Assembly: GCA_965649225.1 (NCBI GenBank)
Contig: CBFGJX010000008.1
Span: 21,512-85,511, forward strand
Source: a candidate division WOR-3 bacterium
GTDB taxonomy: Bacteria > Hydrothermota > Tepidihabitantia > Tepidihabitantales > Tepidihabitantaceae
Reading direction: 5' to 3'
DNA: 64,000 nt
Of this stretch, positions 7,169-52,946 are shown one piece after another. The translations under genes and the position numbers were made by a program. The notes below the pieces were generated by a model, which searched no databases, was not told the DNA's origin, and saw only the letters and a list, made by a program, of their open reading frames with translations. The stretch's first letter is position 1. The number at the start of each line of letters is the position of its first letter.

Positions 7169-8491
7169 ATGAAGACCGTTACTGTCGTCGGCGCCGGCCT
7201 GGCCGGCTGCGAGGCGGCACTGCAGCTGGTCCGGCGTGGTGTCAGCGTGCGGCTGGTGGAGATGCGACCGGGGAAGATGACCGAAGCGCATCAAACCGGC
7301 GAACCGGCCGAACTGGTCTGTTCCAATTCGCTGAAATCCGAGGAACCGGTAAATGCCCACGGGTTGCTCAAGGCCGAGCTGCGCCGGTTGGGCTGCGAGC
7401 TGCTGGAATGTGCCGAACAGGCAAGGGTGCCGGGAGGCAAGGCGCTGGTGGTGGACCGACGTCGGTTCTCGGCGCTGGTTGCGGCCCGGCTGGCGGCGGC
7501 CGGGATTGCAGTTGAGCAACGGGAAGCGGTTGATTTGCCCGAAGGGATAACGATCGTCGCCACCGGGCCGCTGACCTCGCCGGCGCTGGCCGATGCCTTG
7601 AACCGGCTGGTCGGCGTCGGGCGGCTGTTTTTTTACGATGCCATCGCGCCGATTGTGCTGGCAGAGACGCTTGACCGTTCCCGAGTGTTTGCCGCATCGC
7701 GCTACGGCGCGGGTGCCGATTATCTCAACTGTCCATTGACCGAGTCTGAGTATGACCGGCTGGTGGACGAGCTGCGCAATGCCGAGCTGTATCCGCTGCA
7801 CGATTTCGAGAGTGCCGGTTTCTTTGCCGGTTGTCTGCCGGTGGAGGAAATGGCCCGGCGCGGCCGGCTGGTACTGGCATTTGGCCCGCTGAAGCCGGTG
7901 GGGCTGATTGATCCGCGTACCGGTCGGCGGCCGTTTGCCGTTGTCCAGCTCCGGCCGGAGAACGAGACCGGCACGATGTACAATCTGGTTGGTTTTCAGA
8001 CCCGGCTGCGCCACGGCGAACAGCAGCGGGTGTTCCGGCTGATTCCGGGTCTGGAAACGGCCGAGTTTGTCCGCTTCGGCAGCATTCACCGCAACACCTA
8101 CCTGGACGGGCCGAAAACGCTGCGGCCGACACTGCAGACACGGGTAAGACCCGATTTGTTTGTTGCCGGTCAGCTTACAGGTGTTGAGGGTTATGTCGAG
8201 TCGATTGCTGCCGGGCTGGTAGCCGGAGTCAATGCCGCCCGGCTGGCGCTGGGCAGAGAACCGGTTGTGCTGCCGCCCGAAACGATGATTGGTGCGCTGC
8301 TGGCCTACGTCAGTGCGCCCAACAGCAGTTTCCAGCCGATGAATGCGAATTTCGGGCTGCTGCCACCGATCGGCAGGAGGTTGCGCGGCCGGGACCGCAA
8401 GGCAGCACAGGCCGAGCTGGCACTGGCGGCTGTCGCCAGTGTCTCCGGGCTGTTGAACAGTGAGACTGAACAAGTTTGTTTGCCGGGGTAA
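7169..8491 (+). CDS. trmFO: Methylenetetrahydrofolate--tRNA-(uracil54-C5)-methyltransferase TrmFO
   Basis: The FAD-binding VTVVGAGLAGCEAA, LVCSNSLK, and the conserved FFAGQLTGVEGYVESIAAG. Confidence 0.9.
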   Translation: MKTVTVVGAGLAGCEAALQLVRRGVSVRLVEMRPGKMTEAHQTGEPAELVCSNSLKSEEPVNAHGLLKAELRRLGCELLECAEQARVPGGKALVVDRRRFSALVAARLAAAGIAVEQREAVDLPEGITIVATGPLTSPALADALNRLVGVGRLFFYDAIAPIVLAETLDRSRVFAASRYGAGADYLNCPLTESEYDRLVDELRNAELYPLHDFESAGFFAGCLPVEEMARRGRLVLAFGPLKPVGLIDPRTGRRPFAVVQLRPENETGTMYNLVGFQTRLRHGEQQRVFRLIPGLETAEFVRFGSIHRNTYLDGPKTLRPTLQTRVRPDLFVAGQLTGVEGYVESIAAGLVAGVNAARLALGREPVVLPPETMIGALLAYVSAPNSSFQPMNANFGLLPPIGRRLRGRDRKAAQAELALAAVASVSGLLNSETEQVCLPG

Positions 8492-8495
8492 CGTA

Positions 8496-10004
8496 ATGAA
8501 GCAGTGGCTGACTGTTCTGGTGTTGGTGTGGGCCGGACTGGTGTCCGGGCGCGAGTGGCTGGCCCGACTTGACGGGCCAGAGCCCGGGACCGGGGTTGTC
8601 TTTGCGGCTGACGGCTGGAGCCTGGTCGTGGCCGGGGATGATGAACTGTCCCGGCGGGAAAGCGGGATGGTGGTGCTCGAACCGTGGGACGAACGGGCCG
8701 ATTACCTGTACGTTTTCTGCGACAACGAAGCTGTCCGCACTGCGGCGGCAGCCTGCGGTCGCGTGCTGACCGGGGATAGCAACGGACTGGTGCTGGCAAC
8801 CGACACGGCGGGGATAGTGGCGCTCAACCGTCTGCCGGTCCAGTTGTGCGGCATCGGGCGGACCGAGCGTCGGCTGCCCGGGAATGGGGAAAGCACCCTC
8901 AACCCGGCGGTGGTGCCGGACAGTCTGGTCTGGCGGCTGGTCGGCCGGGTAAGTGCCGATTCAGTCGGCGGGACGATTCAGCGGCTGTGGGATTTCCGAG
9001 TCCGTTACAGTGATACCGATTCCTGCCGGCGGGCAATGGACTGGGTGCGGCAGCGGTTGCAGGAGCATGGCTGTGACAGCGTCTGGCTTGATACCTTTCG
9101 CCGTGAGTGGGCGCCGAACGTGGTCGGTTTGAAACGCGGGACAATCAATCCGGACAGGTACTATGTTGTTTGTGCCCATGCCGACGCGACGTCGGAGTCT
9201 CCGCGAATCTATTCGCCCGGTTGTGAGGATAACGGTTCGGGTGTTGCCGCAGTGCTGGAGCTGGCCCGGGTGCTGGCCGATGCCACGGTCGAAAACAGTC
9301 TGCTTTACTGCGTGTTCGCAGGTGAAGAGCAGGGGCTGGTGGGTTCGGATTCACTGGCCCGTCGGGCGCGTGACCGTGGTGATTCAATCCGGCTGGCCAT
9401 CAACTTCGACATGATTTCCTACGGCCGGGCCGGTCGCGACAGCATCGTCATCTACGGTGCACGCAACCCGCCTAACTCGGAGGCGTTTGTGGCGTTTTTC
9501 CGGGCGCAGGCCGATACCTTTTCCAGTCTCAAACACTATGCGACAATCGAGAACACGCCGGCGGCGCGGTCTGACCATTACAGTTTCTGGAAGTATGGTT
9601 TTCCGGCAATCCGGGGCGGCTTTCATGACCGCACGCCGCTTTACCATACCACCGGTGACACCATCGGCCCGCTTTATTACGAACAATGCGGCACCAACAA
9701 CATTCCGATGGAGACCGAGCTGGTCAAAGCGCTGGTGGCGACGGTCGCTCGACTGGTCGGCACCGGGCTGCCGGTGGGAGTTGCGGCCGATCGGCCGGAA
9801 AGGACTGTCCGGCCCGGACTGCCGGCACTGGTTTCGGGTCAGCTGCTGCTGGCCGGCGACCGGCCGGCAATGCTCTGTGATAGGAGCGGGCGGCGGGTGC
9901 AGGTTGTCCGGCCGGGGGTAAACGATATCAGTCGGCTGCCGGCGGGAGTGTATTTTGCCTGCGGAATCGGTCTCCGGCCGCGGCGGGTGATTCTCTGGCA
10001 TTGA
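8496..10004 (+). CDS. M28-family Zn aminopeptidase, secreted, with a short C-terminal sorting-type tail
   Basis: Signal peptide MKQWLTVLVLVWAGLVSG. The M28 motifs …CAHADATSES…GCEDNGSGVAAVLELARV…FAGEEQGLVGS…NFDMIS…DHYSFW… The tail is …DRSGRRVQVVRPG…LPAGVYFACGIGLRPRRVILWH. The in-frame upstream GTG at 8460 overlaps trmFO, so ATG 8496 is preferred. Confidence 0.8.
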   Translation: MKQWLTVLVLVWAGLVSGREWLARLDGPEPGTGVVFAADGWSLVVAGDDELSRRESGMVVLEPWDERADYLYVFCDNEAVRTAAAACGRVLTGDSNGLVLATDTAGIVALNRLPVQLCGIGRTERRLPGNGESTLNPAVVPDSLVWRLVGRVSADSVGGTIQRLWDFRVRYSDTDSCRRAMDWVRQRLQEHGCDSVWLDTFRREWAPNVVGLKRGTINPDRYYVVCAHADATSESPRIYSPGCEDNGSGVAAVLELARVLADATVENSLLYCVFAGEEQGLVGSDSLARRARDRGDSIRLAINFDMISYGRAGRDSIVIYGARNPPNSEAFVAFFRAQADTFSSLKHYATIENTPAARSDHYSFWKYGFPAIRGGFHDRTPLYHTTGDTIGPLYYEQCGTNNIPMETELVKALVATVARLVGTGLPVGVAADRPERTVRPGLPALVSGQLLLAGDRPAMLCDRSGRRVQVVRPGVNDISRLPAGVYFACGIGLRPRRVILWH

Positions 10005-14222: not shown

Positions 14223-14401
14223 GCTTCCTCCTTGGTAAGTAAAATAATTATACCCGATAAACAGTGGTAGCGGCAATGGCGACGGCGGTGAAATCCGAAC
14301 TTGCCAGGACCGGTCGGGCCGGGTTATCATTTCACCAGTGCGGAGGACAGGGGGCATGTGGGCAGGCAACTGGTTTTTCCGGTAAAGAGAGGAATCAGAG
14401 T

Positions 14402-17392
14402 ATGAAGAGAACGGTGTTGCTGTGTGTGCTGGCGGTTTGTCTGGCGTTGGCCGCCAACCCGCTGAAACCGTCAGCCCGCGGCAGTTTTCTGCCGGCGGCA
14501 GGTCCCGACGACTTCCGGGTCGCATTCTGGGGCGAGCAGAGGTTTGATCCGCGTGATGGGCTGCCGTCGCTGGATGTGCCGACCATCAGTGCCTATCCGG
14601 GCGACGGTACCGGCTGGTATCTGGTGCAGTTTTCCGGCCCGGTGTTTGGCTATCAGATTGATGCCCTGCGCCGAACCGGTGCCTATTTTCACGGGTTTCA
14701 CTCGCGGTCGGTGGCGTTTGTCAAGGCCAGCGCGGCTCAGATGGAGGCGGTCAACGCATTGCCGTTTGTGCGCTGGACCGGCATCTACCAGCCGGGGTTG
14801 AAGTTCTGGCCGGGCACACTTGCCGATGAGGGCTATGGCCGGGTGGCGGTGATTCTGTTCTACCCCGAGGACATTGTTGCCGCCGAGGCGGCGATTCGCG
14901 CCCTCGGTGTTACCGTCGTCGCGACCGGTGTGTCCGAAGCGTGCAAGGCGATCGACGTCGAGTGCAGCCGCGCCGATGTCGCCCGACTGGCCGCACTGCC
15001 GTTTGTCCAGTCGCTGGAAGAGTGGCATCCGGCCGAGGCCGAGAATGAACAGTGTCAGTGGGTCGCCCAGACCTGGGCCCAGAATCAGCGCCGGGTGTGG
15101 GAGCAGGGACTCTACGGCGAGGGTGAAATCCTCGGCTATTCCGACGGCCAGCTGGACCATGCCCACTATGCGATGTACGACCCGACAGTGACGATTGCTG
15201 ACACCGGCGAGTTTCCGACCCACCGCAAGATTGTCGCACTGAAGAAATATCCGCCGGCCCGGCTGGGTTCGAGTGATTCGCACGGCAGTCACGTTGGCGG
15301 GACAATCGCCGGCGACGATTCCATCAACGGCGGCACCAATCTCAACGACGGCCATGCCAAGCGGGCCCGGCTGGTCCAGCTTTCGCCGATTCCACAGCCG
15401 ACCGGCAATGACTTCACCGAGCCGCTGAACATCATCTCCAACTATCTGCGTAATCCGGAGCTGCGGCCGCATACGATGTCGCACTCGTGGTGGACGCTGA
15501 CGATGGGACAGTACACCAATGCCGCAGCGACTTTCGACCAGTTCTCCTGGCGGAACAAGGACATCCAGCAGATCAAGTCCTGCGGTAATCAGGGCCAGTC
15601 GAGCCAGTACCGAATCACCGAACCGGGCAATGCCAAGTCAATCATTTCGGCGGCCTCGCTGCAGAACGGTACCAGCTCGACCGTGCTGTCGAGCTATTCA
15701 TCGCGCGGGCCGGCCCCGGACGGCCGGATCAAACCGGACATCAGTGTGCCGGGCGAAAACATCATGTCGGTGCAGTACCGGACGACCAATTCCTACACTG
15801 CGATGAGCGGCACCTCGATGGCGGCACCGGCCATCAACGGCAACATCGGGCTGCTGCGCAACTATCTGCGCAAGGGTTACTATCCGTCCGGTGCCGCCAA
15901 CCCGGCGGACACGTTCGGCTATGTCTCGGCGGCGCTTTTGAAGGCGATGGTGCTGGTTTCGGCCGACCCGAACATTGGTTCCTATGTGATACCTTCGGAG
16001 TACGTCGGCTGGGGCCGGATTGACCTCGACTCGGTGCTTTATTTCTCGACCCCGACCCCGGACTACCGCAAACTGCTGCTCGATGACGATACGCTCGGGC
16101 TGGCAACCGGCGAGTATGTCGAATACCAGTTGCAGGTGACCGATTCAATCCCGCTGCGCATTGCCGTGGTCTGGACCGACACGGCGGCGGCTGCCGGCGC
16201 GAATCCGGCGCTGATCAACGACCTGAACTGTCTGCTGACCGGACCGGACGCAAGCTTCTACAAGGGTAATCTCTACAGCGGCGGACAGTCGGTGCGTAAT
16301 CCGGCCGGTGCGTACGATGCGCTGAATCCGAACGAGCTGTTTCGCGTCAACCGGCCGATGCCCGGTACCTGGACGCTGCGGGTGGCGGCGCAGAATGTCG
16401 TTACCACGCGTCAGCCTTTTGCAGTGGTGGCAACCGGTGCGTTCTCGACCACCCGGCATGATGTCGGGGTCAGTCGGATTATTGCGCCGGTGGGCCGGAT
16501 TGACACCGGCACGGTGGTCACGCCGGCCTGCTCGGTGTACAATTACGGCACCGAGACCGAGAGCTATTCGGTGCGACTGCGCATCGCCGCTGACTACGAT
16601 ACGGCGGTGGCGGTTACCGCCCATCCGGCGGGCAGCGCACTGCGGGTAGAGTTTCCGCAGTGGACCGCAACCGCTCTGGGCAGCTTCGCGGTGAAGTGCT
16701 CGACAATGCTCGATGTTGACTTCAACCCGGCCAACGATTTTATTGCCGATTCGTTCACGGTACGCCGGCCGGTTCACGATGTCGGCGTGATTGCCGTGCT
16801 GGCACCGGGCGACACGGTCGAGGCCGGCACGGTGATTGTGCCGCGGGCACTGGTGCGCAATTTCGGCTCCTATCCGGAAAGCTTCCGGGTGCAGCTGACT
16901 ATCGGGCGCTGGGGCTCTTTCGACAGTCTCAGCCTCGAGCCGGGTGCAGTCGATACGGCGGTGTTCGAGGAGTGGATTGCCGGGCCGATTGGCAGTCTGG
17001 CACTGGCCGGCTACACGATGCTTGCCGGCGATGCCGACCCGGCCAACGATACGGTGCGGGGTACGGTTGTTGTTATCCCCGGTACCGGCGTCGAAGAGCT
17101 GCGGGGCGTGCCGCGCGAGTTCACTCTCGACCGGGCGGCTCCGACGCCGTTCGCCGGCCGGACGTCGGTGCGCTACGGTCTGCCGTATCCGACACCAGTG
17201 ACCGTGGCGGTGTATAACACTGCCGGCCGGCAGGTGCGGCGACTGTTTTCGGGCAGCGCCGAAGCCGGATATCACCGTGCCGAATGGGACGGCCGGGACG
17301 ATTCCGGTCAGCCGGTCGGGCCGGGGATTTACCTCTGCCGGATAGCGGCCGGCGGATTCCGGGCAATGACCAAGCTGGTCAAGCTTGACTAG
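14402..17392 (+). CDS. Subtilisin-like serine protease (peptidase S8) with two CARDB-like modules and a type-A T9SS-like C-terminal sorting domain
   Basis: ATG at 14402 after AGAGAGGAAT. Signal peptide MKRTVLLCVLAVCLALA. The catalytic triad reads DTGEF (Asp), HGSHVGGTIAG (His) and GTSMAAP (Ser). CARDB-like repeats are HDVGVSRIIAPVG… and HDVGVIAVLAPGD…. The C-terminus is …PTPFAGRTSVRYGLPYPTPVTVAVYNTAGRQVRRLFSG…WDGRDDSGQPVGPGIYLCRIAAGGF…TKLVKLD. Confidence 0.85.
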   Translation: MKRTVLLCVLAVCLALAANPLKPSARGSFLPAAGPDDFRVAFWGEQRFDPRDGLPSLDVPTISAYPGDGTGWYLVQFSGPVFGYQIDALRRTGAYFHGFHSRSVAFVKASAAQMEAVNALPFVRWTGIYQPGLKFWPGTLADEGYGRVAVILFYPEDIVAAEAAIRALGVTVVATGVSEACKAIDVECSRADVARLAALPFVQSLEEWHPAEAENEQCQWVAQTWAQNQRRVWEQGLYGEGEILGYSDGQLDHAHYAMYDPTVTIADTGEFPTHRKIVALKKYPPARLGSSDSHGSHVGGTIAGDDSINGGTNLNDGHAKRARLVQLSPIPQPTGNDFTEPLNIISNYLRNPELRPHTMSHSWWTLTMGQYTNAAATFDQFSWRNKDIQQIKSCGNQGQSSQYRITEPGNAKSIISAASLQNGTSSTVLSSYSSRGPAPDGRIKPDISVPGENIMSVQYRTTNSYTAMSGTSMAAPAINGNIGLLRNYLRKGYYPSGAANPADTFGYVSAALLKAMVLVSADPNIGSYVIPSEYVGWGRIDLDSVLYFSTPTPDYRKLLLDDDTLGLATGEYVEYQLQVTDSIPLRIAVVWTDTAAAAGANPALINDLNCLLTGPDASFYKGNLYSGGQSVRNPAGAYDALNPNELFRVNRPMPGTWTLRVAAQNVVTTRQPFAVVATGAFSTTRHDVGVSRIIAPVGRIDTGTVVTPACSVYNYGTETESYSVRLRIAADYDTAVAVTAHPAGSALRVEFPQWTATALGSFAVKCSTMLDVDFNPANDFIADSFTVRRPVHDVGVIAVLAPGDTVEAGTVIVPRALVRNFGSYPESFRVQLTIGRWGSFDSLSLEPGAVDTAVFEEWIAGPIGSLALAGYTMLAGDADPANDTVRGTVVVIPGTGVEELRGVPREFTLDRAAPTPFAGRTSVRYGLPYPTPVTVAVYNTAGRQVRRLFSGSAEAGYHRAEWDGRDDSGQPVGPGIYLCRIAAGGFRAMTKLVKLD

Positions 17393-19173: not shown

Positions 19174-19501
19174 ACCGAGCCCGGCCGGGTTGCAGTTGAA
19201 GCTAAATCCGGCATTTGGGGAGTAATGTCTTAACGCATTGACCACGCGTCAGTTGTCAAACGGCAATCCAACATCCCCCTCTCGTTCCCCCGGCGGTGAT
19301 GACGCAAGCTTGTGCCGGTGCCGCTGAACCGGTTTCAGTCAGACCTGTCAGCAAGCCGGACCGTGCGGCAGCCACTGGTTGCCGGATTGAGGTCGCCGGT
19401 GGGGCGGGACAAAAGCGATGATTGGTATCCGCGGCAGGCGAGTGTCCGAAACGGCGGTTGAGAGTCGGGCCGGACCGGTAATGGTGTATCAGGTCCGGCT
19501 G

Positions 19502-22500
19502 ATGCGTCTCGTGCGGCTCCTGCCACTGGCTGCGGCTGTCGCGCTCGGCGGCTGGTTGAACGAGGAACGCATCACCGCGCGCACCAACGCCGCCGACCGC
19601 ACCTCGCCTAACAACGCCCGCTGCCTCGCGGTCGATTCGGCCGGCAACGTCCACGCGGTGTGGTATGGCGAGGTCGGCGGAACACGCCAGATATGGTACT
19701 CACGGCGCGAGGCGGCGACAGGCGAATGGAGCGCAGACACCGCGGTCACTGCCGGCGTGAGGGATGCCGTCTTCCCTTCGGTCTCGGCCGACCCGGCCGG
19801 GAACGTTCACGTCATCTGGCAGGCGAATACGACCATCCCGGCCATCTGCTACAGGATGCGTGCGGTTGCAAGCGGGTGGGGCGCGGTCGAGACGGTCTGG
19901 CGCGGGTCGGGCGCGGCCAGCCCGAGCATCGCCAGTCCGGGCATGAGCGTGGCGCAGGCCGTTTGGATCGCCACTTTCCCGGCGCAGCACCAGAATGTCC
20001 TGTTCGCAGTCCGGGACAGCGCGGGCTGGCGGTCGCCGAGCGTGTTGAGCGAGGACAACGGGAGCGCGCACAGCAACCCGTGCATCGCCGCGGCATCGGA
20101 TACTCACGCAGCAGTCGTGTGGAATCGCGCGCCCACTCCACGCCTGGTGTGTGCCCGGTTGCTCGTGGACCATCAGCCTCAGACGCTGGAAACTCTCAGT
20201 GTCGGCGGGGGGCTGGCAAGCATCAGTGCCGGGCGCGGCGGCGTCTACAGGGCGGTCTGGAGCAAGTCCGGCGGGACAGCAGACTCTCTGCGCATCCGGA
20301 CATGGGCCGGGGGCGGCTGGCAGGCTGTTGCGCGCGTCGAGTGCGCCGGCCGGCAGGCCGGGCCGGCGTCCGTTGCCGACGACGCCGCAGGCCGGCCGAA
20401 CCTGTCGTGGTGCGCGCCCGGGCTGACATCGGTCGCCCAGGTCCATCACGCCGTTGCCGACTCCGCAGGTACGCAGTGGCATGACGCGCAGAGACTCACC
20501 GAGGCGTCAATCGGCCGGGAGAACCCGTCGATCGCGTGCGGGCCGGACGGCAGCATTCAGGTCATCTGGACCGACCAGCGGCACAGCAGCAGCAACACCG
20601 ATGTCTACTTCCGCCGGTGGGAGTTCGTGCGGGATGTGGCAGTGTTGGGATTTGAGGCGCTGGAGGACACCGTGGACTCGGGCGACGTTGTCGTGCCGAG
20701 GGTGAGCGTGGTGAACCTGGGCGATACGGTCGAACGGAACGTCCTGCTGTGGTTTCACGGGCCGGGCGTGAGCGCGGACACGGTGCTGGATACGATTGCC
20801 CGTGGTGACACGGTCGTTGTCCGGTTCGATTCGCTGGCCGGCCGCGTGCGCGGGTGGAACGTTGTTGTCTGTTCGACCCGCATCGAGGGGGACCGCCGGC
20901 GCGGCAACGATGCGGCGCGCGACAGCTTCTTCGTCGCGGTGCGGGATGCGGCGGTGGATTCGATTGTCGCACCGCGCGGGCAGGTGGTCGAGGATTCGGT
21001 CGCGCCGGAGGTGCTGCTCGCCAACCGCGGCAATCTGGCGGCGCGCTGCACCTGCATCGTGAGCATCGCGCGCGATTCCGCAGTTGTCTACGAGGCGGAT
21101 ACGGTGCTGGGTATCGCGCCGGGGTCGAGTGCGCGGATTGTGCTGCCGTACTGGCGAACCGCGCCGGGCGAATACGCGCTGCGCGCATCGGTACGGCTGG
21201 CCGGCGATATGGTGCGGGCCAATGACACGCTCTCGGCGCGGTTTTCGGTGCCGCGGCGCGATGTCGGAGTTGCCGGAATCATCGCGCCGGTCGGACAATT
21301 TGACTCGGGCGCGGCGGTCGAGCCGCAGGTCGTGGTGTTCAACGCCGGTGCGGCAGAAGAGTCTTTCGCCGCGCGACTGTGGATCGGGCAGGGCTGGCTC
21401 GACTCGGCGCGGGTCGAACGGCTTGGACCGGGCGAGAGCCTCGCGGTGCGATTTCGCGAGTGGCGGGCACTCGAACGCGGCGAGAGCGAGGTGCGCTGCT
21501 CGCTCGCGGTGCGGCCCGACCACGAGCCGGGCAACGACACCGCGGCCGGGGCGGTGTTCGTGCGGGTGATTGACGCGGCCGCGCGGTCAATCGAGCTGCC
21601 GCCCGAGGAGGTCGGGTTCGGGACGCTGTCGCCGCTGGTGAGGGTGCAGAACTCCAGCACGCAGGCAGAGTCGGTGCAGTGCCGGTTCGAGATCCGGGCC
21701 GGGGATTCGCTGGTCTGGGCCGATTCGGTCGCGGCCGGGCTGCCGGCCGGGGTTGACAGTACGGTTGAGTTCGGCGCGTGGGAGACGCGCGGCGGCTGGT
21801 ATCGCGCGGTCCTGCGGGTGAGCGCGGGTGGAGACATGCGGCCGGAGAATGATTCAGTCACGGTAGTGTTTCGCGTGCACCCGATTGATGCCGCGGCGCG
21901 CGCGATTGTTGCCCCGCGCGGGGTGATTCGCGCGGGCCTGGTCGCGCCGGCAGTGCGCATTGCCAATCTCGGGGACGAGACCGAGGACATCCGGCTTCGG
22001 CTCGGCATCGGTGCGGGCGGCGGCACGGGCTACGACGAGTCGACGCTGGTGACGGTCGAGCCGGGCCGGGAGACGACCGCAATGCTGCCGGCGTGGCGCG
22101 CGACGTGCGGCGAGTATTCGGTTTTCGCGCGCGTGGCCCTGCGCGGTGACATCAACCCGGGCAATGACCAGTTGGCGGGAAACGTCGTCGTGGAGTCGAC
22201 CGTGGTGTTGCGCTGGACCCGGCTGGCCGACATTCCGGCCGGGCCGCGCGGATTGCCGGTGCTGGACGGCGGCGCGCTGGCCGGGGCCGGCGGCAGGGTC
22301 TATGCACTCAAGGGCGGGTCGAGCGAGCTGTGGGCTTACTCACCACCAGAGAGCGTGTGGACCGCGCAGGCCGCGCTGGGCGAGAGCTGCCGGACCGGTG
22401 GCGGTGCCGCGCTGGCCTGGGACGGCGAGCGCTGGCTGTACGCGATTCGCAGCCGGCAGAGCGGTGAGCTGTGGCGGCTTGACCTTGCGGCCGATTCGTG

Positions 22501-23317
22501 GCAGGCGTGCCCGTCCCTGCCGCCCCATGTGCGGCGGTTCGGACACGGTGCGACGCTCGCATGCTGGCGTGGCGATACGCTCAAGCTTTTTGCGCTGCCG
22601 GGCGCGGGTTCGCTGGAGTTTTTCTGTTACCTGCCGGGACTGCGGCGCTGGCACGCGCGCCGGCCGCTGCCGGCCGGGCCGACCGGACGCCGTCCGCGCC
22701 GCGGCAGTTGTCTTGTCAGTGCCGGCAACCGGCTGTTCTGTCTGAAGGGTGGCACCGGCGAATTCTACGAGTATTTTCCCCGCCGCGATTCCTGGGTTGA
22801 ACGTTCCGGAATGCCGCGCATCAGCCGTGCCGGTCGGACCCGAAGCGGCGGTGACGGTGCCGCGGCGGGATGGGATGGCGGTGACCTGATTTACTTTACC
22901 AAGGGCCGCGGTCTGGAGTTCTGGCGTTATCGCATCAGTGCCGATACCTGGGAACAGCTTGAGGACGTGCCGCGGTCGGTGCCGCGCCGGGCCTGCCGCA
23001 AGGGTACCGGTCTGACCGTGCTGGGTGGCAACGTGTATCTGTTGCGCGGCAACGCAACGCGCGAGTTCTGGTGCTATGACCCGGACGCAAACAACCTCGG
23101 CACTCTGGCGGTCTTGCCGCCAGCCGGGCATGAGCCGTCGCGGGTCGGGCTGCGGCGCGGGCCGCTGGCGCACAACGGGAGCGATGCTGCCGGCTGGCGC
23201 TGGTACGACGCAGCCGGCAGACGGGTTTTGCCGGGCCGGCGGGCCGGGGTGGTGTTTGCGGTTGGGCCGGGTGGAGCAGTGAAGCTGGTTCTGGTGCGGC
23301 CACCGGCCGGGAGATAA
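19502..23317 (+). CDS. Giant secreted multidomain protein. It combines a sialidase/BNR-like β-propeller, 6× CARDB-like Ig modules and a Kelch-like β-propeller.
   Basis: Signal peptide MRLVRLLPLAAAVALGGW (ATG at 19502; the ORF-track start at 19418 is an extension). N-terminal blades resemble …D.AGN.H.VW…, e.g. AVDSAGNVHAVWYGE, SADPAGNVHVIWQAN, CGPDGSIQVIWTDQ. CARDB-like repeats include DVGVAGIIAPVGQFDSGAAVEPQVVVFNAG…. The C-terminal repeats follow G…Y…GG…ELW.Y.P..D.W (Kelch-like). The tail is …YDAAGRRVLPG..AGVVFAV…KLVLV…. Confidence 0.75.
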   Translation: MRLVRLLPLAAAVALGGWLNEERITARTNAADRTSPNNARCLAVDSAGNVHAVWYGEVGGTRQIWYSRREAATGEWSADTAVTAGVRDAVFPSVSADPAGNVHVIWQANTTIPAICYRMRAVASGWGAVETVWRGSGAASPSIASPGMSVAQAVWIATFPAQHQNVLFAVRDSAGWRSPSVLSEDNGSAHSNPCIAAASDTHAAVVWNRAPTPRLVCARLLVDHQPQTLETLSVGGGLASISAGRGGVYRAVWSKSGGTADSLRIRTWAGGGWQAVARVECAGRQAGPASVADDAAGRPNLSWCAPGLTSVAQVHHAVADSAGTQWHDAQRLTEASIGRENPSIACGPDGSIQVIWTDQRHSSSNTDVYFRRWEFVRDVAVLGFEALEDTVDSGDVVVPRVSVVNLGDTVERNVLLWFHGPGVSADTVLDTIARGDTVVVRFDSLAGRVRGWNVVVCSTRIEGDRRRGNDAARDSFFVAVRDAAVDSIVAPRGQVVEDSVAPEVLLANRGNLAARCTCIVSIARDSAVVYEADTVLGIAPGSSARIVLPYWRTAPGEYALRASVRLAGDMVRANDTLSARFSVPRRDVGVAGIIAPVGQFDSGAAVEPQVVVFNAGAAEESFAARLWIGQGWLDSARVERLGPGESLAVRFREWRALERGESEVRCSLAVRPDHEPGNDTAAGAVFVRVIDAAARSIELPPEEVGFGTLSPLVRVQNSSTQAESVQCRFEIRAGDSLVWADSVAAGLPAGVDSTVEFGAWETRGGWYRAVLRVSAGGDMRPENDSVTVVFRVHPIDAAARAIVAPRGVIRAGLVAPAVRIANLGDETEDIRLRLGIGAGGGTGYDESTLVTVEPGRETTAMLPAWRATCGEYSVFARVALRGDINPGNDQLAGNVVVESTVVLRWTRLADIPAGPRGLPVLDGGALAGAGGRVYALKGGSSELWAYSPPESVWTAQAALGESCRTGGGAALAWDGERWLYAIRSRQSGELWRLDLAADSWQACPSLPPHVRRFGHGATLACWRGDTLKLFALPGAGSLEFFCYLPGLRRWHARRPLPAGPTGRRPRRGSCLVSAGNRLFCLKGGTGEFYEYFPRRDSWVERSGMPRISRAGRTRSGGDGAAAGWDGGDLIYFTKGRGLEFWRYRISADTWEQLEDVPRSVPRRACRKGTGLTVLGGNVYLLRGNATREFWCYDPDANNLGTLAVLPPAGHEPSRVGLRRGPLAHNGSDAAGWRWYDAAGRRVLPGRRAGVVFAVGPGGAVKLVLVRPPAGR

Positions 23318-23321
23318 AGCA

Positions 23322-23351
23322 GGCAGGGGATGGAGGAATGCATCCCCTGCC
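23322..23351 (+). terminator. Hairpin (11-bp stem GGCAGGGGATG/CATCCCCTGCC) 5 nt after the giant gene's stop
   Basis: A perfect inverted repeat. No U-tract. Confidence 0.35.
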
Positions 23352-23459
23352 TGAGGCAACGCGGAGTCTTGCCCCCCTGTGCGTGCTGAGCGACTTGCGG
23401 ATTGAGTCTGCCCGGCGGCGTTTTGCTGGTAGAAACTGCCAGTTAAGATACCGCAAAGA

Positions 23460-23505: not shown

Positions 23506-26500
23506 TTAATCCAGTCTTACCGCTTTGACCGTTGTTCGCTGCCCCGCGGCTTCAAGCTGCAGGAAGTAGATGCCCCGGGCAAGGGGTTGGCCGGCAGCGT
23601 CGGTGCCGTCCCAGCGGACAGTGCCGGCGCCGGCCGGCTGGTTGCCGGAAAGCAGTTGTTTCACCATGCGGCCGGAGTTGTCATAGACGGCCAGATTCGC
23701 TATGCCCGGCTGAGGCAGAACATAGCGGATTGAGGCCGGATCGCGCAGCGGGTTGCGGTCGATGCCAAGAACCGGCAGCAGGGTGGGACCGGTCAATGGT
23801 TCGCTGATGGCGGTGGACTGACTGGTGGTGTACCTGATCGCGCGGCCGGGCCCGAGCGGCGCTGCGCCGCGATGATAGGTGCCATCAAACAGGCAGTTGA
23901 TGCCGATGGCGCAGGTCGGGTCTTCGATCCCCACCGTCGCCGAGCCGAAGTCGTTGCCGCCGCGGTACTGCAGGATTATCTCGTTGTCGCGGGTCGGGGT
24001 CTGCACCGTGGTGTCGTAGATGATGAACTGGCCAATGACATAGCTGGTGCGCGGGCTGTACTTGCAGACCGAGTCGTATTCGATGATGAAGCGATGGTTG
24101 GTTGCATCGTGCCAGTACCACACCCCGCGCCCGGCCTGAGGATACAGGTCGTCCCAGAGCAGACAGAGGTTGGCCGGCTGAGCACCGTCGGGCAGACTGA
24201 CATTGGAGTAGCTCGAGCTGGTGGTCGAGCCGGGCGCTATCCAGCCGTTGGAGCAGATGCTGACCTGCGTGAAGCTCTGACCGTAGTAGCGCCAGGGCCC
24301 GAACGCCGGCGGCAGACTGACAACCGCGGTCTGGTCGTCGGAGAGCGTCAACCGGGTGCCGACACCGTTGATTTCCACCCACTCGAACTGGGGCCGCTGG
24401 GCATAGCCCGAATCGACGTCGTCGTAGGCCCAGTAGCGGGCCGGCTGCCGCGGCCCGTCCGGTATCGGGTCAACCGCCCGCAGTTCACCGACGACGATGT
24501 CGAAGGCAAGCGTGTCGGTGTAGCCGGTGCCGGCAACGAAGAGCTGCATCGTAACCGGATATTCGCGCGGCGTGAAGGGCGAGGAGCGGATTTGAAACCG
24601 GTCGGACCAGTTGGTCCGGCTGGAATCGGGCAGGATGGTGCCGTAGCTTGCCTGGGCGTCGATTACCGTGATGAGGGTATCGGGACTGAACAGTGTTGCA
24701 ACGACATTCTGAGCCGGCAGGCGGCCGACGTTGCCGAGGCGGACAGCGAGCTCGGCGGTTTCGCCCGGATCGAGCCGGTTGTTGTTGTTACCGCCGGGCG
24801 GAGAGTCGATGATATATTGCTGCTGGTACACCAGCGCGGCTGAATTGGTGGCAATCGCTTCGACCGCATCGAGGTCAAAGCCGGCAGTGGCGCCGGAGAC
24901 CGCGCCGGAGTCGTCAACAATCTTGATGAAGCGAAAAGCGCTGACGCTGCCGCGGCTGAGGTCGAAGCTGTCGGTGCCGGTGGCCCAGCCAAGGCTGGTC
25001 CAGGGGCCGGCCCAGTCCAGTGCGACTTCGACGCGGTAGCCTTCGGGGTCGGCGTCGTCCTCATACACCGTGAAGTCGCTGCCCGGGCCATTGACCAGAG
25101 TGCGGCCGAAATCGTAGATGGCGAAGCCGCCGCGGCCGAGCGAGAAGCGGCGGCCGTCGCGCGGGCCGAGGGCCCAGTCCGGGGTCGAAACGATCAAAGT
25201 GTCGCTGACCCCGCGGCCGCTGATGAACTGGTGCAAGGCGACGGGCAAAGTGGTGTCGGGCACGAGCGCAACATTGAGGCGGGTAACCGTGTCGGCGGTG
25301 ACCGTGACACCGGTGATGGTCTTGCTGCGATAGCCGTTGGCTTCGAAGACCACGTCATAGGTGCCCGGCCGCAGATAGCGGTGGTAGTCGCCGATGCTGT
25401 CGCAGAAACTGGGAAAATTGATGGGCATCGGCCGGACCCGGGCACGCACCGGCGCGCCGGTGACCGAGTCGGTGACGATGCCGCGGATGCCGCGGTCGAT
25501 GTTGGCCAGTATCATCTTCATCGCGGCGTGCTCGCGTGCGATTATCTGGGCGAGCGACTCGACCGGCGGAGTCTTGTAGATGCAGGTTTCGACGGTCCAG
25601 CCGATGGCGCCGGTAGTGCCGTAGGCGTAGTCCTTGGACGAGCCGTTGATGCGGTACATTCCCCGGTACCCGGGGGCGTTGGGGTAGCCGGTGATGTCGT
25701 GGTAGCGGCCGCCCAGATACCAGAACTCCATCGAGTCGCGCGTGCCGAAGGGCGAGTAGCTCCAGGGCGTGGAGATGAAGTAGGTGCCGCCGTGGCCCGA
25801 CTGCCAGAAGTTGAAGCAGTTGCGCTGCATCAGCCGGAGCTGGACCCGGGTCTCGGGCTGGGTGAAGCCTTCGCGCGCCGAGGTCTCGTACCACCACATG
25901 AAGCCGTAGTCGCGGTTGCAGTCGTAGCCGTTGCGGTTGGTGCGCGCGCCGGCGATGTGGCCGTATGGGTTGGTCGGGCAGAGCACCCAGATTTCCCGGG
26001 TGTTGACCCAGTAGGTGACGTCGGGGTCGACCCCGTAGTTGCGCGCGAGGTAGACCGCGAACTCGAAGGCGGGTTCGGTGGCGCATTTTTCGTCGCCGTG
26101 GATGGCGGCTTCAAACATCAGTTCGGGCTCGTCTTCTTCGAGCTGCGGGTTGTCGGTTATTTTCAGGGCGAAGATGAGGCTGTCGTTGGATGCGAACCCG
26201 AGCGTCTCGAACTTGATGAAGGTCGGGTTGTTCTGCGCCATCAGCAGAAAAGTGTCTTTAATCTGAGTGTAGGTGTGAAACCGGTAGTCGAGCGCGTTCT
26301 TCTCGTAAAAGCCGGTGATGTCGCGCTTGAGTACCGCGACACTCCAGCCGTCGCGCTCGAGCCGGGCGACGCGGTCCTGGGGCACCTCGACGAGCATCCG
26401 GCCGTCCGGTCCCGGGCCGTTGATGATGCAGCCGAGGTCTTCAAGCTCGCGGATGTCCTCGCGGGTACGGACATCGACGGTGACAAGGTCGTAGCGCGGT

Positions 26501-26550
26501 GCGGCCGAAGCCGCGAGCGCCAGGGCGGCAAGGACAAGAACAATTCTCAA
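23506..26550 (-). CDS. M14-family Zn carboxypeptidase with a carboxypeptidase-regulatory-like domain, extra β domains and a type-A T9SS-like C-terminal sorting domain
   Basis: TTG at 26548-50 follows AGGAGG. Signal peptide MRIVLVLAALALAASA. The M14 Zn motif HGDE in …AIHGDEKCATEP…. A CarbopepD_reg-like segment (GIVTDSVTGAPVRARVRP…). The C-terminus is …PASIRYVLPQPGIANLAVYDNSGRMVKQLLSG…WDGTDAAGQPLARGIYFLQLEAAGQRTTVKAVRLD. Confidence 0.75.
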   Translation of the reverse strand: MRIVLVLAALALAASAAPRYDLVTVDVRTREDIRELEDLGCIINGPGPDGRMLVEVPQDRVARLERDGWSVAVLKRDITGFYEKNALDYRFHTYTQIKDTFLLMAQNNPTFIKFETLGFASNDSLIFALKITDNPQLEEDEPELMFEAAIHGDEKCATEPAFEFAVYLARNYGVDPDVTYWVNTREIWVLCPTNPYGHIAGARTNRNGYDCNRDYGFMWWYETSAREGFTQPETRVQLRLMQRNCFNFWQSGHGGTYFISTPWSYSPFGTRDSMEFWYLGGRYHDITGYPNAPGYRGMYRINGSSKDYAYGTTGAIGWTVETCIYKTPPVESLAQIIAREHAAMKMILANIDRGIRGIVTDSVTGAPVRARVRPMPINFPSFCDSIGDYHRYLRPGTYDVVFEANGYRSKTITGVTVTADTVTRLNVALVPDTTLPVALHQFISGRGVSDTLIVSTPDWALGPRDGRRFSLGRGGFAIYDFGRTLVNGPGSDFTVYEDDADPEGYRVEVALDWAGPWTSLGWATGTDSFDLSRGSVSAFRFIKIVDDSGAVSGATAGFDLDAVEAIATNSAALVYQQQYIIDSPPGGNNNNRLDPGETAELAVRLGNVGRLPAQNVVATLFSPDTLITVIDAQASYGTILPDSSRTNWSDRFQIRSSPFTPREYPVTMQLFVAGTGYTDTLAFDIVVGELRAVDPIPDGPRQPARYWAYDDVDSGYAQRPQFEWVEINGVGTRLTLSDDQTAVVSLPPAFGPWRYYGQSFTQVSICSNGWIAPGSTTSSSYSNVSLPDGAQPANLCLLWDDLYPQAGRGVWYWHDATNHRFIIEYDSVCKYSPRTSYVIGQFIIYDTTVQTPTRDNEIILQYRGGNDFGSATVGIEDPTCAIGINCLFDGTYHRGAAPLGPGRAIRYTTSQSTAISEPLTGPTLLPVLGIDRNPLRDPASIRYVLPQPGIANLAVYDNSGRMVKQLLSGNQPAGAGTVRWDGTDAAGQPLARGIYFLQLEAAGQRTTVKAVRLD

Positions 26551-26630
26551 CACAGCCTCCTGAGTTGCTGAAAATGACAGACAGTTGATTTTAAAGTCGG
26601 CCCCGGGCCGGTCAACCCGGCCGGCTGTCA

Positions 26631-27332
26631 TCACATCCGAAACGGCGGTCGTGCCGCGGAGCCGAACCGCAGGCCGGCATCCCAGGACAGCCCGCCCAGG
26701 CCAAAACGCGGCGGCTGACCCCGGCCGGTGTAAACTTCGGGGCCGCCGATTGGAATGAACCAGCCGGCGCGGGTATAGAGCGCAACGTAATGCTCTTCGC
26801 CGTAGCGCAGCCGTCCCATCAGTTCGAGCGCCGGCATGACGCCGACGGTCCAGCCCCAGAAAACATCCCAGATGTCCGGGTCAGCAACAAACAGCGCGCC
26901 GTCTTCGATGGAGTGGGCATAGAGAAACCAGGCGCCGAAACCGACATTGACATGGGGTCGGACCCAGAAGAAATCACGCGGTACCCAGGCGTAACCACAG
27001 TCGAAGCTGCCGCGCAATCCGACCAGTTCGGCCGCCAGCGAGTCGGCCCGCTGGGTGGAGGCGGTGACAGAACCCTCACCACCGAGGGTGATGTTGCCAA
27101 CCGCGCCGGCACGATGGCCGCCCAGCCACCATACCGGCCGGCGCAGGCGGAACGAGTCGTTGCCGCGATAGCGGTCCGGGTCGCGGTTGAGCCGGGAAAG
27201 GGTCTGGTTCAATCCTGATGTTCTGAGCCAGGTGGCACTGATGCCGAAGCCACCATAGCCGGCCAGGGCGGTGCCGGTGAGCAGAAAAAACAGTACAGCC
27301 GGAGTGAGATTCCGGCGGATTTCAGTTGTCAT
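26631..27332 (-). CDS. Putative outer-membrane β-barrel protein (hypothetical), upstream of and co-oriented with the M14 gene
   Basis: ATG at 27332 is preceded by AAGGAGA. Signal peptide MTTEIRRNLTPAVLFFLLTGTALA. Alternating aromatic/Gly-rich β-strand-like segments and a C-terminal …F-R-M aromatic end. The ORF-track N-terminus (to 27665) is spurious. Confidence 0.45.
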   Translation of the reverse strand: MTTEIRRNLTPAVLFFLLTGTALAGYGGFGISATWLRTSGLNQTLSRLNRDPDRYRGNDSFRLRRPVWWLGGHRAGAVGNITLGGEGSVTASTQRADSLAAELVGLRGSFDCGYAWVPRDFFWVRPHVNVGFGAWFLYAHSIEDGALFVADPDIWDVFWGWTVGVMPALELMGRLRYGEEHYVALYTRAGWFIPIGGPEVYTGRGQPPRFGLGGLSWDAGLRFGSAARPPFRM

Positions 27333-34926: not shown

Positions 34927-35146
34927 TTCCAACTCCTTGTGCGGTCTGGCTGTTATCGAGCGTATCATACGCCGGTGTGTGCCACGGGCAAGTCCAGTCA
35001 ACGTTTTGTCCGGCTGCCGGCGGCGAAGTTCGGCCGGCAGACCGGCGGTTAGTCGGCTGAGAAGATCGGTGAAACCGCTAGTTTCTGGCTGATTGACGTT
35101 GCCAGTTTGGGCAATAGCATTTCTCGTCCAACCGACAGGAGGTAAT

Positions 35147-36697
35147 TTGCTGCTTGTCCTGCTGACGATTCTTACGCAGACGCCGACTGTGCCGATGCGC
35201 TGCGCGACGCCGCTGTTCGAGAGCCTGAAGGCCGGCGGGTTGCCGCCGGCGCCGAAGCCCCGTCCGGCCGGCGAACGACTGCGCGTGGGCGATTCGCGCG
35301 TGATGTGGCTGCAGAACATGAGCGTGATGCCGCCGGTTCAGTTTCAGGCCAGTCTGACCTGTCGCGCGGTCGGCCCGCACTGCTACGTGATGGTCGAGGA
35401 CTCGGCATGGAACGCCGGCCAGGTTGATTCAGCCGACGTCGCGCGCATCGTCGAACGGTTCGATTTCTCCAGCCCGCGCGACAGCACGAAGGGCGTGTGG
35501 GGGCACAACACTTCGGTGCTGGGGATGCCGCCCGACGCCATCGACAACGACTCGGCCATCTACCTGCTCTACTACGACGTCGGCTCTTTCCACGGCTACT
35601 CTTTCGACGGGTTCTGGCAGTACTTCGACCAGTACTACGATACGACCGCGATGCGGCTGTGGGGCTACCATTCCAACGAGGTCGAGTGCGTGTACCTTGA
35701 CTGCTGGCCCAACAATCCGGCCGGCGATTACCGCATCGCCATTGTCGCGCACGAGTTCGGCCACATGATTCACTGGAACTATGACCCGGCCGAGTCGCTC
35801 TGGGTGGTCGAGGGCAACTGTGAGCTGGCGATGTGGCTGTACGGCACGCCCGACCCGGTGTCTTCCTTCCCGTCCAACCCGGACAATGACCTGACGAGCT
35901 GGACTGGGGCTTGGGCCGATTACATCAAGACCTACCTGTTTTTCCTCTACCTTTACGAGCAGTATGGCGGCCGGGTTGGTCTGGACCTGATTCACAATGT
36001 CATTGCCTCGCCGTTTGTCAGCATCGAGGGTATTGACTCGGCCTTCGCTGCAACCGGGCGGGACGAGCGGTTTACCGATGTCTTCGATAGCTGGGTGCTG
36101 GCCAACCGCATCAACGACACATCTTTCGCCGGCGGCCGGTACGGCTACTACGGTGAGCGCGTGCCGCGGTTCGGGGTTGCCGGTTACCATTTCACCTTCC
36201 CGGTAGCACGCAGCGGCGACCTGAACCGCTGGGCCGGCGAGTACATTCTCTTTCAGGGTGGGACCGGGCTTGCCGCGACTTTTGATGCCGCCGACAACGC
36301 CGATTTCCGGTTGTTTGTTGTCGGGCTGGACACGGTGAGACGGCGGCTGTTTCTGGACACGATTACGCTCGACTCGGCGGGCCGGGCCGACATCAGCGTG
36401 CCGGGGTTTGGCACGGACTGGCAGTCGGTATATCTCGTGCCGGTAAACCACACGCTTTCAGGGCGGCGGTCGTACAGCTACACCGCGAACGCTTCCGGTC
36501 TCGCCGAAGCAACGTCGGCCGGGCGTGGCCGTCTGTCTGTGCCAACGGTCTGTCGGGCAGGAGATTTGCGGCCGGGACTTGCCGACCGCCTGTTCGCTGC
36601 CGATGGACGCGTGATCCGGTCGCCCGCAGAACTCAAACCCGGAGTCTATTGGCTCAAGGCCGGCGAGGAGATTCGCCGGGTCGTGCTGGTGCCCTAG
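35147..36697 (+). CDS. Secreted HEXXH gluzincin metallopeptidase with a short class-B C-terminal sorting-type tail
   Basis: TTG at 35147 after AGGAGG (the alternative in-frame TTG at 35093 has no Shine-Dalgarno sequence). The zincin motif is AIVAHEFGHMIHWNYDP…E. The tail is …FAADGRVIRSPAELKPGVYWLKAGEEIRRVVLVP. Confidence 0.65.
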   Translation: MLLVLLTILTQTPTVPMRCATPLFESLKAGGLPPAPKPRPAGERLRVGDSRVMWLQNMSVMPPVQFQASLTCRAVGPHCYVMVEDSAWNAGQVDSADVARIVERFDFSSPRDSTKGVWGHNTSVLGMPPDAIDNDSAIYLLYYDVGSFHGYSFDGFWQYFDQYYDTTAMRLWGYHSNEVECVYLDCWPNNPAGDYRIAIVAHEFGHMIHWNYDPAESLWVVEGNCELAMWLYGTPDPVSSFPSNPDNDLTSWTGAWADYIKTYLFFLYLYEQYGGRVGLDLIHNVIASPFVSIEGIDSAFAATGRDERFTDVFDSWVLANRINDTSFAGGRYGYYGERVPRFGVAGYHFTFPVARSGDLNRWAGEYILFQGGTGLAATFDAADNADFRLFVVGLDTVRRRLFLDTITLDSAGRADISVPGFGTDWQSVYLVPVNHTLSGRRSYSYTANASGLAEATSAGRGRLSVPTVCRAGDLRPGLADRLFAADGRVIRSPAELKPGVYWLKAGEEIRRVVLVP

Positions 36698-49396: not shown

Positions 49397-49411
49397 ATAA
49401 AGGAGACCAAG

Positions 49412-50269: not shown

Positions 50270-50315
50270 GGTTGTCCGGTGGCGGGAGGCCGGCCGGCCT
50301 CCCGCCACCGGTACC

Positions 50316-52114: not shown

Positions 52115-52121
52115 GAGCAAG

Positions 52122-52880: not shown

Positions 52881-52946
52881 TGGCGCTTGCATTGTTTCGC
52901 CGGCTGGATGATAATCATCTGACCGCGACCGGAACAGGAGTCTAAT

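Follow-up and report, generated by a model that had tools for sequence, protein, structure and literature searches.

Two β-propellers joined by a CARDB-like stalk in a predicted surface protein of candidate division WOR-3

The gene and its product

In a stretch of 64,000 nucleotides from a candidate division WOR-3 bacterium (assembly GCA_965649225.1, contig CBFGJX010000008.1, positions 21,512 to 85,511), hereafter the window, we analyzed a gene (window positions 19502-23317) whose product joins two different β-propellers through a row of immunoglobulin (Ig)-like modules. Repeat alignment and hidden Markov models (HMMs) lay the protein out as seven N-terminal blades (residues 28-375), five CARDB-like units and six Kelch blades (residues 905-1206), preceded by a probable signal peptide and followed by a linker and a short β-strand tail. 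Every one of these building blocks is a known fold, but the family that combines them is itself uncharacterized, if recurrent. It was searched for across protein cluster representatives by word-indexed and exhaustive searches, with GTDB species representatives contributing further loci.

The gene occupies a single uninterrupted open reading frame (ORF; 19418..23317, + strand) of about 70% GC. Its start codon is ambiguous between 19418 (the first ATG), 19487 and 19502, and there is no clear ribosome-binding site near these candidates that decides among them. A conserved Trp18 is preceded by 17-21 residues in the homologs, so that 19502 or 19487 appears more plausible than 19418. A start at 19502 yields 1271 residues plus the stop codon, one residue fewer than was counted in the first-pass annotation. 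That annotation had also named a genuine frameshift as the observation that would undo it; the frame proved unbroken. Two orthologs align end to end, P0002 with 89% identity across 99% of the length and L004, on a contig of a WOR-3 metagenome-assembled genome (MAG), with 85% identity over residues 6-1270. The ratio of nonsynonymous to synonymous divergence (dN/dS) against L004 is 0.28 for the whole gene, lies between 0.12 and 0.39 in each folded domain and is highest, at 0.56, in the linker and tail; the gene is thus under purifying selection, and a frameshifted gene or pseudogene is ruled out. Synonymous divergence itself (dS) from L004 is uneven along 19553-23119: the head (0.18) and the fifth CARDB-like module (0.21) have lower values than modules 1 and 3 and the Kelch domain (0.45-0.53), which may reflect recombination from strain to strain. 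The long antisense ORFs are in our view spurious, of the kind that a GC content of 70% commonly produces.

The first 17 codons (19502..19552, + strand) encode a probable Sec signal peptide, MRLVRLLPLAAAVALGG, recognized by eye as a hydrophobic stretch behind Arg residues. The gene has its own upstream region of 329 bp, in which an Rfam search of the leader returned no regulatory RNA and a promoter scan found no sigma-70-like element. Downstream, the neighboring M14 peptidase gene is convergent and ends at 23506. A hairpin with a 13-bp stem (23320..23353, no strand assigned), picked up by a scan for terminator-like structures 3 nt past the stop codon, is strong and stands between the two convergent ends, where it is likely to serve as a shared terminator.

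The first-pass annotation had recognized three classes of internal repeat, and all three are real. The self-BLASTP intended for a dot-plot returned the identity match alone; we therefore used repeat HMMs, in which each repeat was left out in turn and its score compared with those of 200 shuffles. All CARDB-like units score 45-87 bits (best shuffle ≤11.4) and all Kelch blades 26-36 bits (shuffles ≤7.2). Among the N-terminal blades, 1, 2, 4 and 7 score 12-28 bits; blades 3, 5 and 6, which are too decayed, do no better than shuffles in this test and are supported by the structure model. Of the domain HMM scans proposed at first pass, those for Kelch_3, Kelch_6 and, narrowly, CARDB pass the Pfam cut-offs, but none of the BNR and sialidase models reaches significance.

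The head is a seven-bladed propeller of decayed Asp-box type

The N-terminal head (19553..20626, + strand; residues 18-375) is identified as a seven-bladed β-propeller of degenerate BNR/Asp-box type by an AlphaFold2 (AF2) model, Foldseek searches and blade alignment. Its repeats were initially described as blades of about 45 residues; the blades are indeed there, but they measure about 50 residues and number seven, each combining the pattern 'P.[IV].[AV]D..GN.H.[VI]W' with a decayed Asp-box (e.g., 'SRREAATGEW'). The AF2 model of residues 18-376, built from 11 aligned sequences, is a confident propeller (mean predicted local distance difference test score, pLDDT, 86; predicted template modeling score, pTM, 0.90), all-β and made of seven four-stranded blades. 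Against the PDB, the best Foldseek matches of the head are the seven-bladed Photorhabdus lectins of the PHL/PLL type (E 3e-10, template modeling (TM) score 0.65-0.75), followed by the PL42 rhamnose-glucuronate lyase 7esl (TM 0.73) and the GH145 enzyme BT3686, both likewise seven-bladed. Six-bladed sialidases superpose at TM ~0.5 with a root-mean-square deviation (rmsd) of ~11 Å.

The canonical Asp-box pattern ([ST].[DN].G.[TS][WFY]) has no match in the protein and five or six in distant relatives. In three such head homologs (P0009, P0010 and P0012), the five to six canonical Asp-boxes stand exactly where our protein has 'SRREAATGEW', 'MRAVASGW' and similar strings. A profile that takes in Asp-box-bearing homologs (A1) reaches the Pseudomonas aeruginosa pseudaminidase in the PDB at E 1.8e-4, and the head profile reaches other sialidases at about 4e-3 (up to 8e-3). 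Because the Asp-box homologs align at the decayed positions and the profile extends to pseudaminidase, the head is a degenerate, seven-bladed descendant of the BNR/Asp-box propeller lineage that lies outside the sialidase family. The label 'sialidase-like' given to it initially thus survives only as remote superfamily ancestry; with seven blades in place of six and no intact Asp-box, it does not describe the domain. The HMM libraries agree. There is no match to Pfam BNR_2 or Sialidase, with BNR_4 alone appearing below threshold (E 0.056; 13.2 bits against a cut-off of 27.3), and none to the NCBIfam sialidase models; the NCBIfam model for a 'PDIAV motif-containing lipoprotein' (NF053835) matches sub-threshold at E 7.7e-4.

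Conservation within the head follows the repeat. In a comparison of 12 family members, the positions kept in 11 or more are largely Trp, Gly or part of the repeat motif, joined by a few polar residues of blade 1 (T25, R40, Q63 and Y66), and no polar constellation independent of the blades is seen among them; the family-conserved positions of blade 1 also include D45, N49 and H51. At the sequence level, the same conserved set holds no catalytic Arg triad, Tyr/Glu pair or Asp acid/base. The arginines that are invariant among the five closest sequences occupy an equivalent position in successive blades, and the N-terminal 'ERIT' corresponds to the motif repeated in the fourth strands, by which the ring is closed, and not to an FRIP motif.

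The stalk comprises five CARDB-like modules

Between the propellers, alignment and HMMs delimit five modules of about 100 residues on the + strand, one fewer than the six first counted. Module 1 (20627..20941; residues 376-480) scores 44.8 bits when left out of its own model, against ≤6.1 for its shuffles, and is orthologous to the first unit of P0003 (62% identity). Module 2 (20942..21253; residues 481-584; 69.6 bits) is the source of the Pfam CARDB match, with its best stretch at residues 485-564. Module 3 (21254..21565; residues 585-688; 60.0 bits) is 39% identical to CARDB-like unit a of the neighboring S8 protease. Module 4 (21566..21880; residues 689-793) scores 53.7 bits, and module 5 (21881..22198; residues 794-899), with 87.4 bits the highest, is of a type that is tandemly duplicated in P0003. 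The whole protein passes Pfam CARDB (PF07705) narrowly, at 24.3 bits against a cut-off of 22.7. We use the label 'CARDB-like' because two of seven units alone match CARDB individually, at E ≤0.1. A profile of the stalk unit found no homolog among solved structures (best E 0.66), and the modules are predicted to be Ig-like from their sequence repeats.

The five units are 25-38% identical among themselves. They are positionally orthologous to the units of P0003, with 43-62% identity, and the additional unit of P0003 duplicates the unit-5 type in tandem (54%).

The Kelch propeller is the best-conserved domain

The stalk leads into a six-bladed Kelch β-propeller (22199..23119, + strand; residues 900-1206), on which Pfam, AF2 and Foldseek agree and which confirms the approximately six C-terminal Kelch-like repeats noted at the outset. 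Pfam scores it with Kelch_3 at 36.4 bits (cut-off 22) and Kelch_6 at 32.9 bits (cut-off 25.3). The AF2 model of residues 900-1271 shows six blades and 24 strands with a pLDDT of about 90 across the propeller, and its nearest structures in Foldseek are propellers of the KEAP1 type and designed six-bladed ones (SAKe6), at E ~1e-14, TMt ~0.7 and 20-22% identity. A family profile of this domain reaches Kelch proteins of the PDB down to E 2.6e-11, and it is the domain that the family conserves best.

A short tail resembling T9SS sorting domains

After the Kelch domain comes a predicted disordered linker (23120..23188, + strand; residues 1207-1229), marked by low pLDDT and, together with the tail, by the highest dN/dS of the gene. 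In the AF2 model, the disordered stretch covers model positions 299-329 (residues 1198-1228) at pLDDT 27-37, and a small low-confidence β-unit follows. The last part of the gene (23189..23317, + strand) encodes a tail resembling the C-terminal domains (CTDs) of type IX secretion system (T9SS) cargo, with the motif 'WRWYDAAGRRV..GVVFAV..VKLVLVR' running up to the stop codon. It was recognized by alignment with the fuller tails of relatives: the last ~40 residues, WRWYDAAGRRVLPGRRAGVVFAVGPGGAVKLVLVR, align with their longer CTD-like tails. The tail domain spans about 37 residues, compared with 70-80 in canonical CTDs, is modeled at a pLDDT of ~65 and has equivalents of motifs D and E.

Among the tails of four relatives that were scanned, P0015 alone nears Pfam Por_Secre_tail (24.8 bits against a cut-off of 27), with a very weak match in P0004 and none in P0006 and P0018; P0005 and P0007 have precomputed PF18962 matches. 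The flanking S8 and M14 peptidases both pass TIGR04183, at 28.6 and 25.4 bits against a cut-off of 23. The distance from 'GRxV' to 'G[IV]Y[FL]' is 6 residues here, ~7-19 in other family members and 29 in the S8 and M14 CTDs. Because of this difference in strand spacing, 6 residues against 29, the tail reads as a strongly shortened CTD. Export by the T9SS is putative.

A BNR-like ORF further along the window (36719-38272) likewise has at its C-terminus a CTD-like tail of reduced length, '...GLRAGVYWLDDGVARRRFVILR' (38147-38269). Since the S8 and M14 peptidases have full TIGR04183 domains and the protein under study and the BNR-like one have short tails, full sorting tails may be in use side by side with 'mini' ones in this genome.

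A family with apparently exchangeable N-terminal modules

The head type is very common, with 24,661 cluster representatives at E ≤1e-3 and 365 at E ≤1e-30. The exact order of head, CARDB-like units and Kelch propeller is found in 16 of the best 150 representatives and in the query's own cluster, that is, in at least 17 clusters, with L004-L008, L010 and L016 as further examples from the GTDB species representatives. The architecture, initially called unusual, is accordingly uncommon but recurrent. Those members with a named taxon (L004, L005 and L016) come from MAGs of candidate division WOR-3, the phylum presently named Caldifarciminota by NCBI. The MAG of L004 contains a second head domain (L009, 10001-11170) that is 42% identical and is cut by the contig end, so that paralogs of the family coexist within one genome.

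Across 18 representatives, mean pairwise identity is 47% in the Kelch domain, 35% in the first and last CARDB-like units and 31% in the head. The stalk ranges from 1 to 11 units, five being the commonest number, and from 3 to 11 in the at least 17 clusters with the full architecture; it varies through internal duplication and loss of modules. Precomputed PF07705 matches are present in P0003, P0004, P0005 and P0007. In two of these, a protease replaces the propeller head, namely a Peptidase_C25 with its propeptide in P0005 and a Peptidase_M6 in P0007, and is followed by 9-10 CARDB units, Kelch and Por_Secre_tail. Because P0005 and P0007 carry proteases on the equivalent part, the CARDB-Kelch-tail portion seems to serve as a cassette for display on which the N-terminal module can be exchanged.

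The neighborhood is ordinary core chromosome rich in peptidases

Several secreted-looking peptidases surround the gene: an M28 peptidase (8460-10004), an S8 peptidase with two CARDB-like modules and a CTD (14264-17392), an M14 peptidase with CarboxypepD_reg and a CTD (23506-26634) and an MXAN_6640-like HExxH peptidase (35093-36697). Such a window fits a proteolytic lifestyle. The S8 ORF is listed from a GTG that lies 45 codons before a typical signal peptide, MKRTVLLCVLAVCLALA (the extra codons covering 14264-14398), and its true start is probably near 14399.

The two CARDB-like modules of the S8 protease (16454..17077, + strand; residues 731-938 of ORF 14264-17392) are matched by the five-unit HMM at 7e-23 and 1e-14 and by BLASTP at 5e-21 with 31-32% identity, in line with the first-pass observation that this repeat type is common to both proteins. 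The same cannot be said of the BNR-like ORF at 36719-38272, which had been credited with the same blade type as the head: the blade HMM does not match it, the best BLASTP hit has E 0.26 and hhalign gives a probability of 40%. Its Pfam BNR_2 match lies below the cut-off (E 6.6e-4); perhaps this ORF, too, encodes a distant BNR-like protein.

The shared modules had been taken as a sign of domain shuffling within an island, which did not hold up. Between the S8 units and the five of the stalk, identity is 25-39%, no closer than among the latter, and no DNA-level repeats were found. The gene is flanked by core genes of the window encoding MnmA, a GidA-family protein (Pfam GIDA), RtcB, UvrC, an ABC-F protein, an M17 peptidase, UvrB, a TldD/PmbA pair and a pst/pho cluster. 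GC at third codon positions (GC3) is 0.82 in the gene, within the local range of 0.72-0.83, and the excess in its overall GC stems from the second codon position, reflecting a composition rich in Ala, Gly and Arg. A genomic island or recent shuffling is therefore ruled out, and the region is ordinary core chromosome. Because the units are positionally orthologous between species, the sharing of CARDB-like modules looks ancient and family-wide.

Two further genes of the window concern the envelope and phosphate uptake. A 631-residue protein (41689-43584, - strand) combines TPR repeats, a YfiO/BamD-like region and a C-terminal OmpA domain; it is predicted to be associated with the outer membrane and argues for a diderm envelope. 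With PorE it shares the TPR and OmpA_C-like parts only, the four-domain description of PorE adding WD40 and CRD. The pst/pho cluster (48209-55610, + strand), as scanned outside the 52.9-54.3 kb stretch that separates PstB from PhoR, consists of a 395-residue protein, PstS, PstC, PstA, PstB and PhoR and recurs beside two family members (L001, 5021-12433; L002, 13273-20902), in which PhoU and a response regulator stand between PstB and PhoR. The 395-residue protein upstream of pstS (48209-49396, + strand) has no Pfam or NCBIfam match, is conserved in position in L001 (68% identity) and L002 (57%), and may be an outer-membrane or binding protein with a role connected to phosphate. In L001 and L002 the family gene adjoins phoR in convergent orientation, and in the window the cluster lies 25 kb from the gene under study. 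With this distance, and with other members of the family elsewhere, we dropped a functional link to the pho/pst regulon and read the association as probable lineage synteny that has been rearranged.

Proposed function and alternatives

On balance, we favor a secreted binding protein without catalytic activity, probably displayed on the cell surface, as the product of the gene. This preference follows from the signal-peptide-like start, the lectin-like and fast-evolving head, the variable stalk, the conserved Kelch base, the CTD-derived tail and the protease-bearing siblings. It agrees with the first-pass annotation, which had thought of a surface adhesin or lectin rather than an enzyme: with a lectin-like fold, no catalytic set of the sialidase type, a signal-peptide-like N-terminus and a T9SS-like tail, that remains the best-supported reading. 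We envision that Sec would carry the protein across the inner membrane, and that the C-terminal tail would then export or anchor it by the route of the neighboring CTD-bearing S8 and M14 peptidases. Of the protein standing on the cell, the Kelch propeller would lie nearest the surface. An Ig-like module is about 4 nm long as a general value, and at ~4 nm for each the stalk would hold the head roughly 20 nm out. There the head would bind its ligand, most likely a glycan, multivalently, in the manner of seven-bladed propeller lectins. The CARDB-Kelch-tail cassette would thus serve as a scaffold for display in general, with the N-terminal domain as its exchangeable functional module.

Several results weigh against this proposal. 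The likeness of the head to lectins lies at the level of the fold alone, at 12-18% identity; PLL/PHL chains are absent from the profile and phmmer matches of the head, and the sole lectin matched by a profile is CV39L, at E 0.096. The seven-bladed GH145 and PL42 enzymes match the head nearly as well as the lectins do, and the CARDB assignment of the stalk is marginal. For export, the tail matches no T9SS CTD model (TIGR04183, PF18962) even at E 10 and is without the N-terminal strands, the PNP strand and the central loop of the canonical CTD, no T9SS machinery gene was found among the ORFs scanned in the window, and a literature search returned no paper mentioning both WOR-3 and T9SS. No paper on Caldifarciminota came up in that search either, nor anything pertinent to the combination of CARDB with Kelch.

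The closeness of those enzymes in fold space raises the question of whether the head is itself a carbohydrate-active enzyme, a glycosidase or lyase like those of GH33, GH145 or PL42, displayed on the CARDB-Kelch-tail cassette. Catalytic domains do hold the head position in relatives (C25 in P0005, M6 in P0007) and in the S8 protease of the window, Foldseek returns the PL42 lyase and BT3686 at the values given above, and the family profile extends to sialidases and pseudaminidase between E 1.8e-4 and 8e-3. We nonetheless consider this rather unlikely: the six-bladed sialidases fit poorly, the BNR_2 and Sialidase HMMs are silent, no conserved Arg triad, Tyr/Glu or Asp set is seen, the invariant arginines are repeat-positional, and the head is the least conserved domain of the protein, which would be unusual for one with an active site. 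The more elaborate proposal of a bifunctional sialic-acid enzyme, with a sialidase head and a mutarotase of the NanM type as its Kelch domain, starts from the fact that NanM/YjhT is a six-bladed Kelch propeller and from the fact that JGI calls P0019, a distant Kelch relative, 'N-acetylneuraminic acid mutarotase'. It is very improbable, and we disfavor it in that no model gives it support: the NCBIfam NanM and sialidase models do not match even at E 1, NanM is absent from the profile matches in the PDB, and the head is seven-bladed and lacks the Asp-box.

The surroundings of the gene suggest, as another alternative, a non-catalytic partner of extracellular proteolysis, in which the Kelch propeller and perhaps the head would capture proteins or peptides, keeping substrates or the surfaces of prey near the CTD-bearing peptidases. 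The nearest solved relatives of the Kelch domain are peptide-binding modules (KEAP1, KLHL), the gene sits between the secreted S8 and M14 peptidases with the M28 and HExxH ones close by, the M14 neighbor is kept at the L004 ortholog locus, and the cassette is common to C25 and M6 peptidases. This too is rather unlikely in our judgment, as the neighborhood is not kept in distant members (L001 and L002 lie beside pho/pst genes, L003 and L005 elsewhere) and there is no operon link, the gene having its own upstream region and a convergent downstream neighbor. A structural component of the envelope or surface layer, whose propellers make lattice or anchoring contacts and have no specific external ligand, would account for the large repetitive build of Ig-like modules and propellers, the richness in Ala, Gly, Val and Arg, the conserved base and the paralogs in one MAG (L004 and L009). 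We find it distinctly unlikely, since the number of stalk units varies from 3 to 11 among close relatives, which is hard to square with a regular lattice, and S-layer models gave no match.

Taken a step further, the protein could belong to a family, seen here in WOR-3 MAGs, of long-stalked 'double-propeller' adhesins in which the reduced tail of about three strands still works as a signal for sorting or anchoring at the outer membrane, while the variable head and stalk attach to glycans on particles or cells. We regard this extended version as unlikely; were it true, bacteria outside Bacteroidota would have, in this short working tail, either a CTD of minimal size or a sorting signal of a different kind. 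WOR-3 bacteria are uncultured and their surface biology is essentially unknown, and the family offers a handle on three questions: how proteins are displayed in WOR-3, to what these cells adhere, and where the lower size limit of a T9SS-type signal lies. No new mechanism is indicated; the analysis is useful chiefly because it gives 'hypothetical' proteins an annotation and corrects the sialidase label.

Comparison with known systems

Among known proteins, the sialidase superfamily (e.g., P. aeruginosa pseudaminidase, 2w38/3h6j, and the BNR_2 and BNR_4 families) is a remote sequence relative of the head, which differs from it in having seven rather than six blades, no Asp-box, HMM scores that are all below the curated cut-offs and no evident conserved catalytic set. 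The closest likeness in fold is to the PLL/PHL lectins (PDB 6fhx, 5mxf, 6rgg and 8q82; PMC5584973, PMC6943638), which, like the head, are seven-bladed, about 350 residues long and built of Trp-rich blades of ~50 residues. These lectins are non-enzymatic and multivalent, and a report on PHL describes up to seven fucose sites per monomer (PMC6797808). In sequence they show no detectable homology to the head, with 14-18% identity. Unlike the protein studied here, they are free-standing and soluble, without a stalk, Kelch domain or sorting tail.

At the other end of the protein, the Kelch domain resembles KEAP1, KLHL12 and the designed SAKe propellers in its six blades with the GG..Y...W pattern. 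In contrast to KEAP1 and KLHL12, it belongs to a bacterial and predicted extracellular protein without the BTB/BACK partner domains, and the blade motif 'LKGG..EFW.Y....D.W' is specific to the group of environmental bacteria to which the protein belongs. In overall organization, it is most readily compared with T9SS cargo, such as the gingipain-type C25 peptidases, P0005 and P0007 and the S8 and M14 peptidases of the window. Like these, it has a signal peptide (a probable one here), an N-terminal functional domain, Ig-like/CARDB repeats and a C-terminal β-strand tail with equivalents of 'YD..GR.V' and 'G.YF....K.V..R', but the functional domain of our protein is a propeller in place of a peptidase, and a Kelch propeller precedes its tail.

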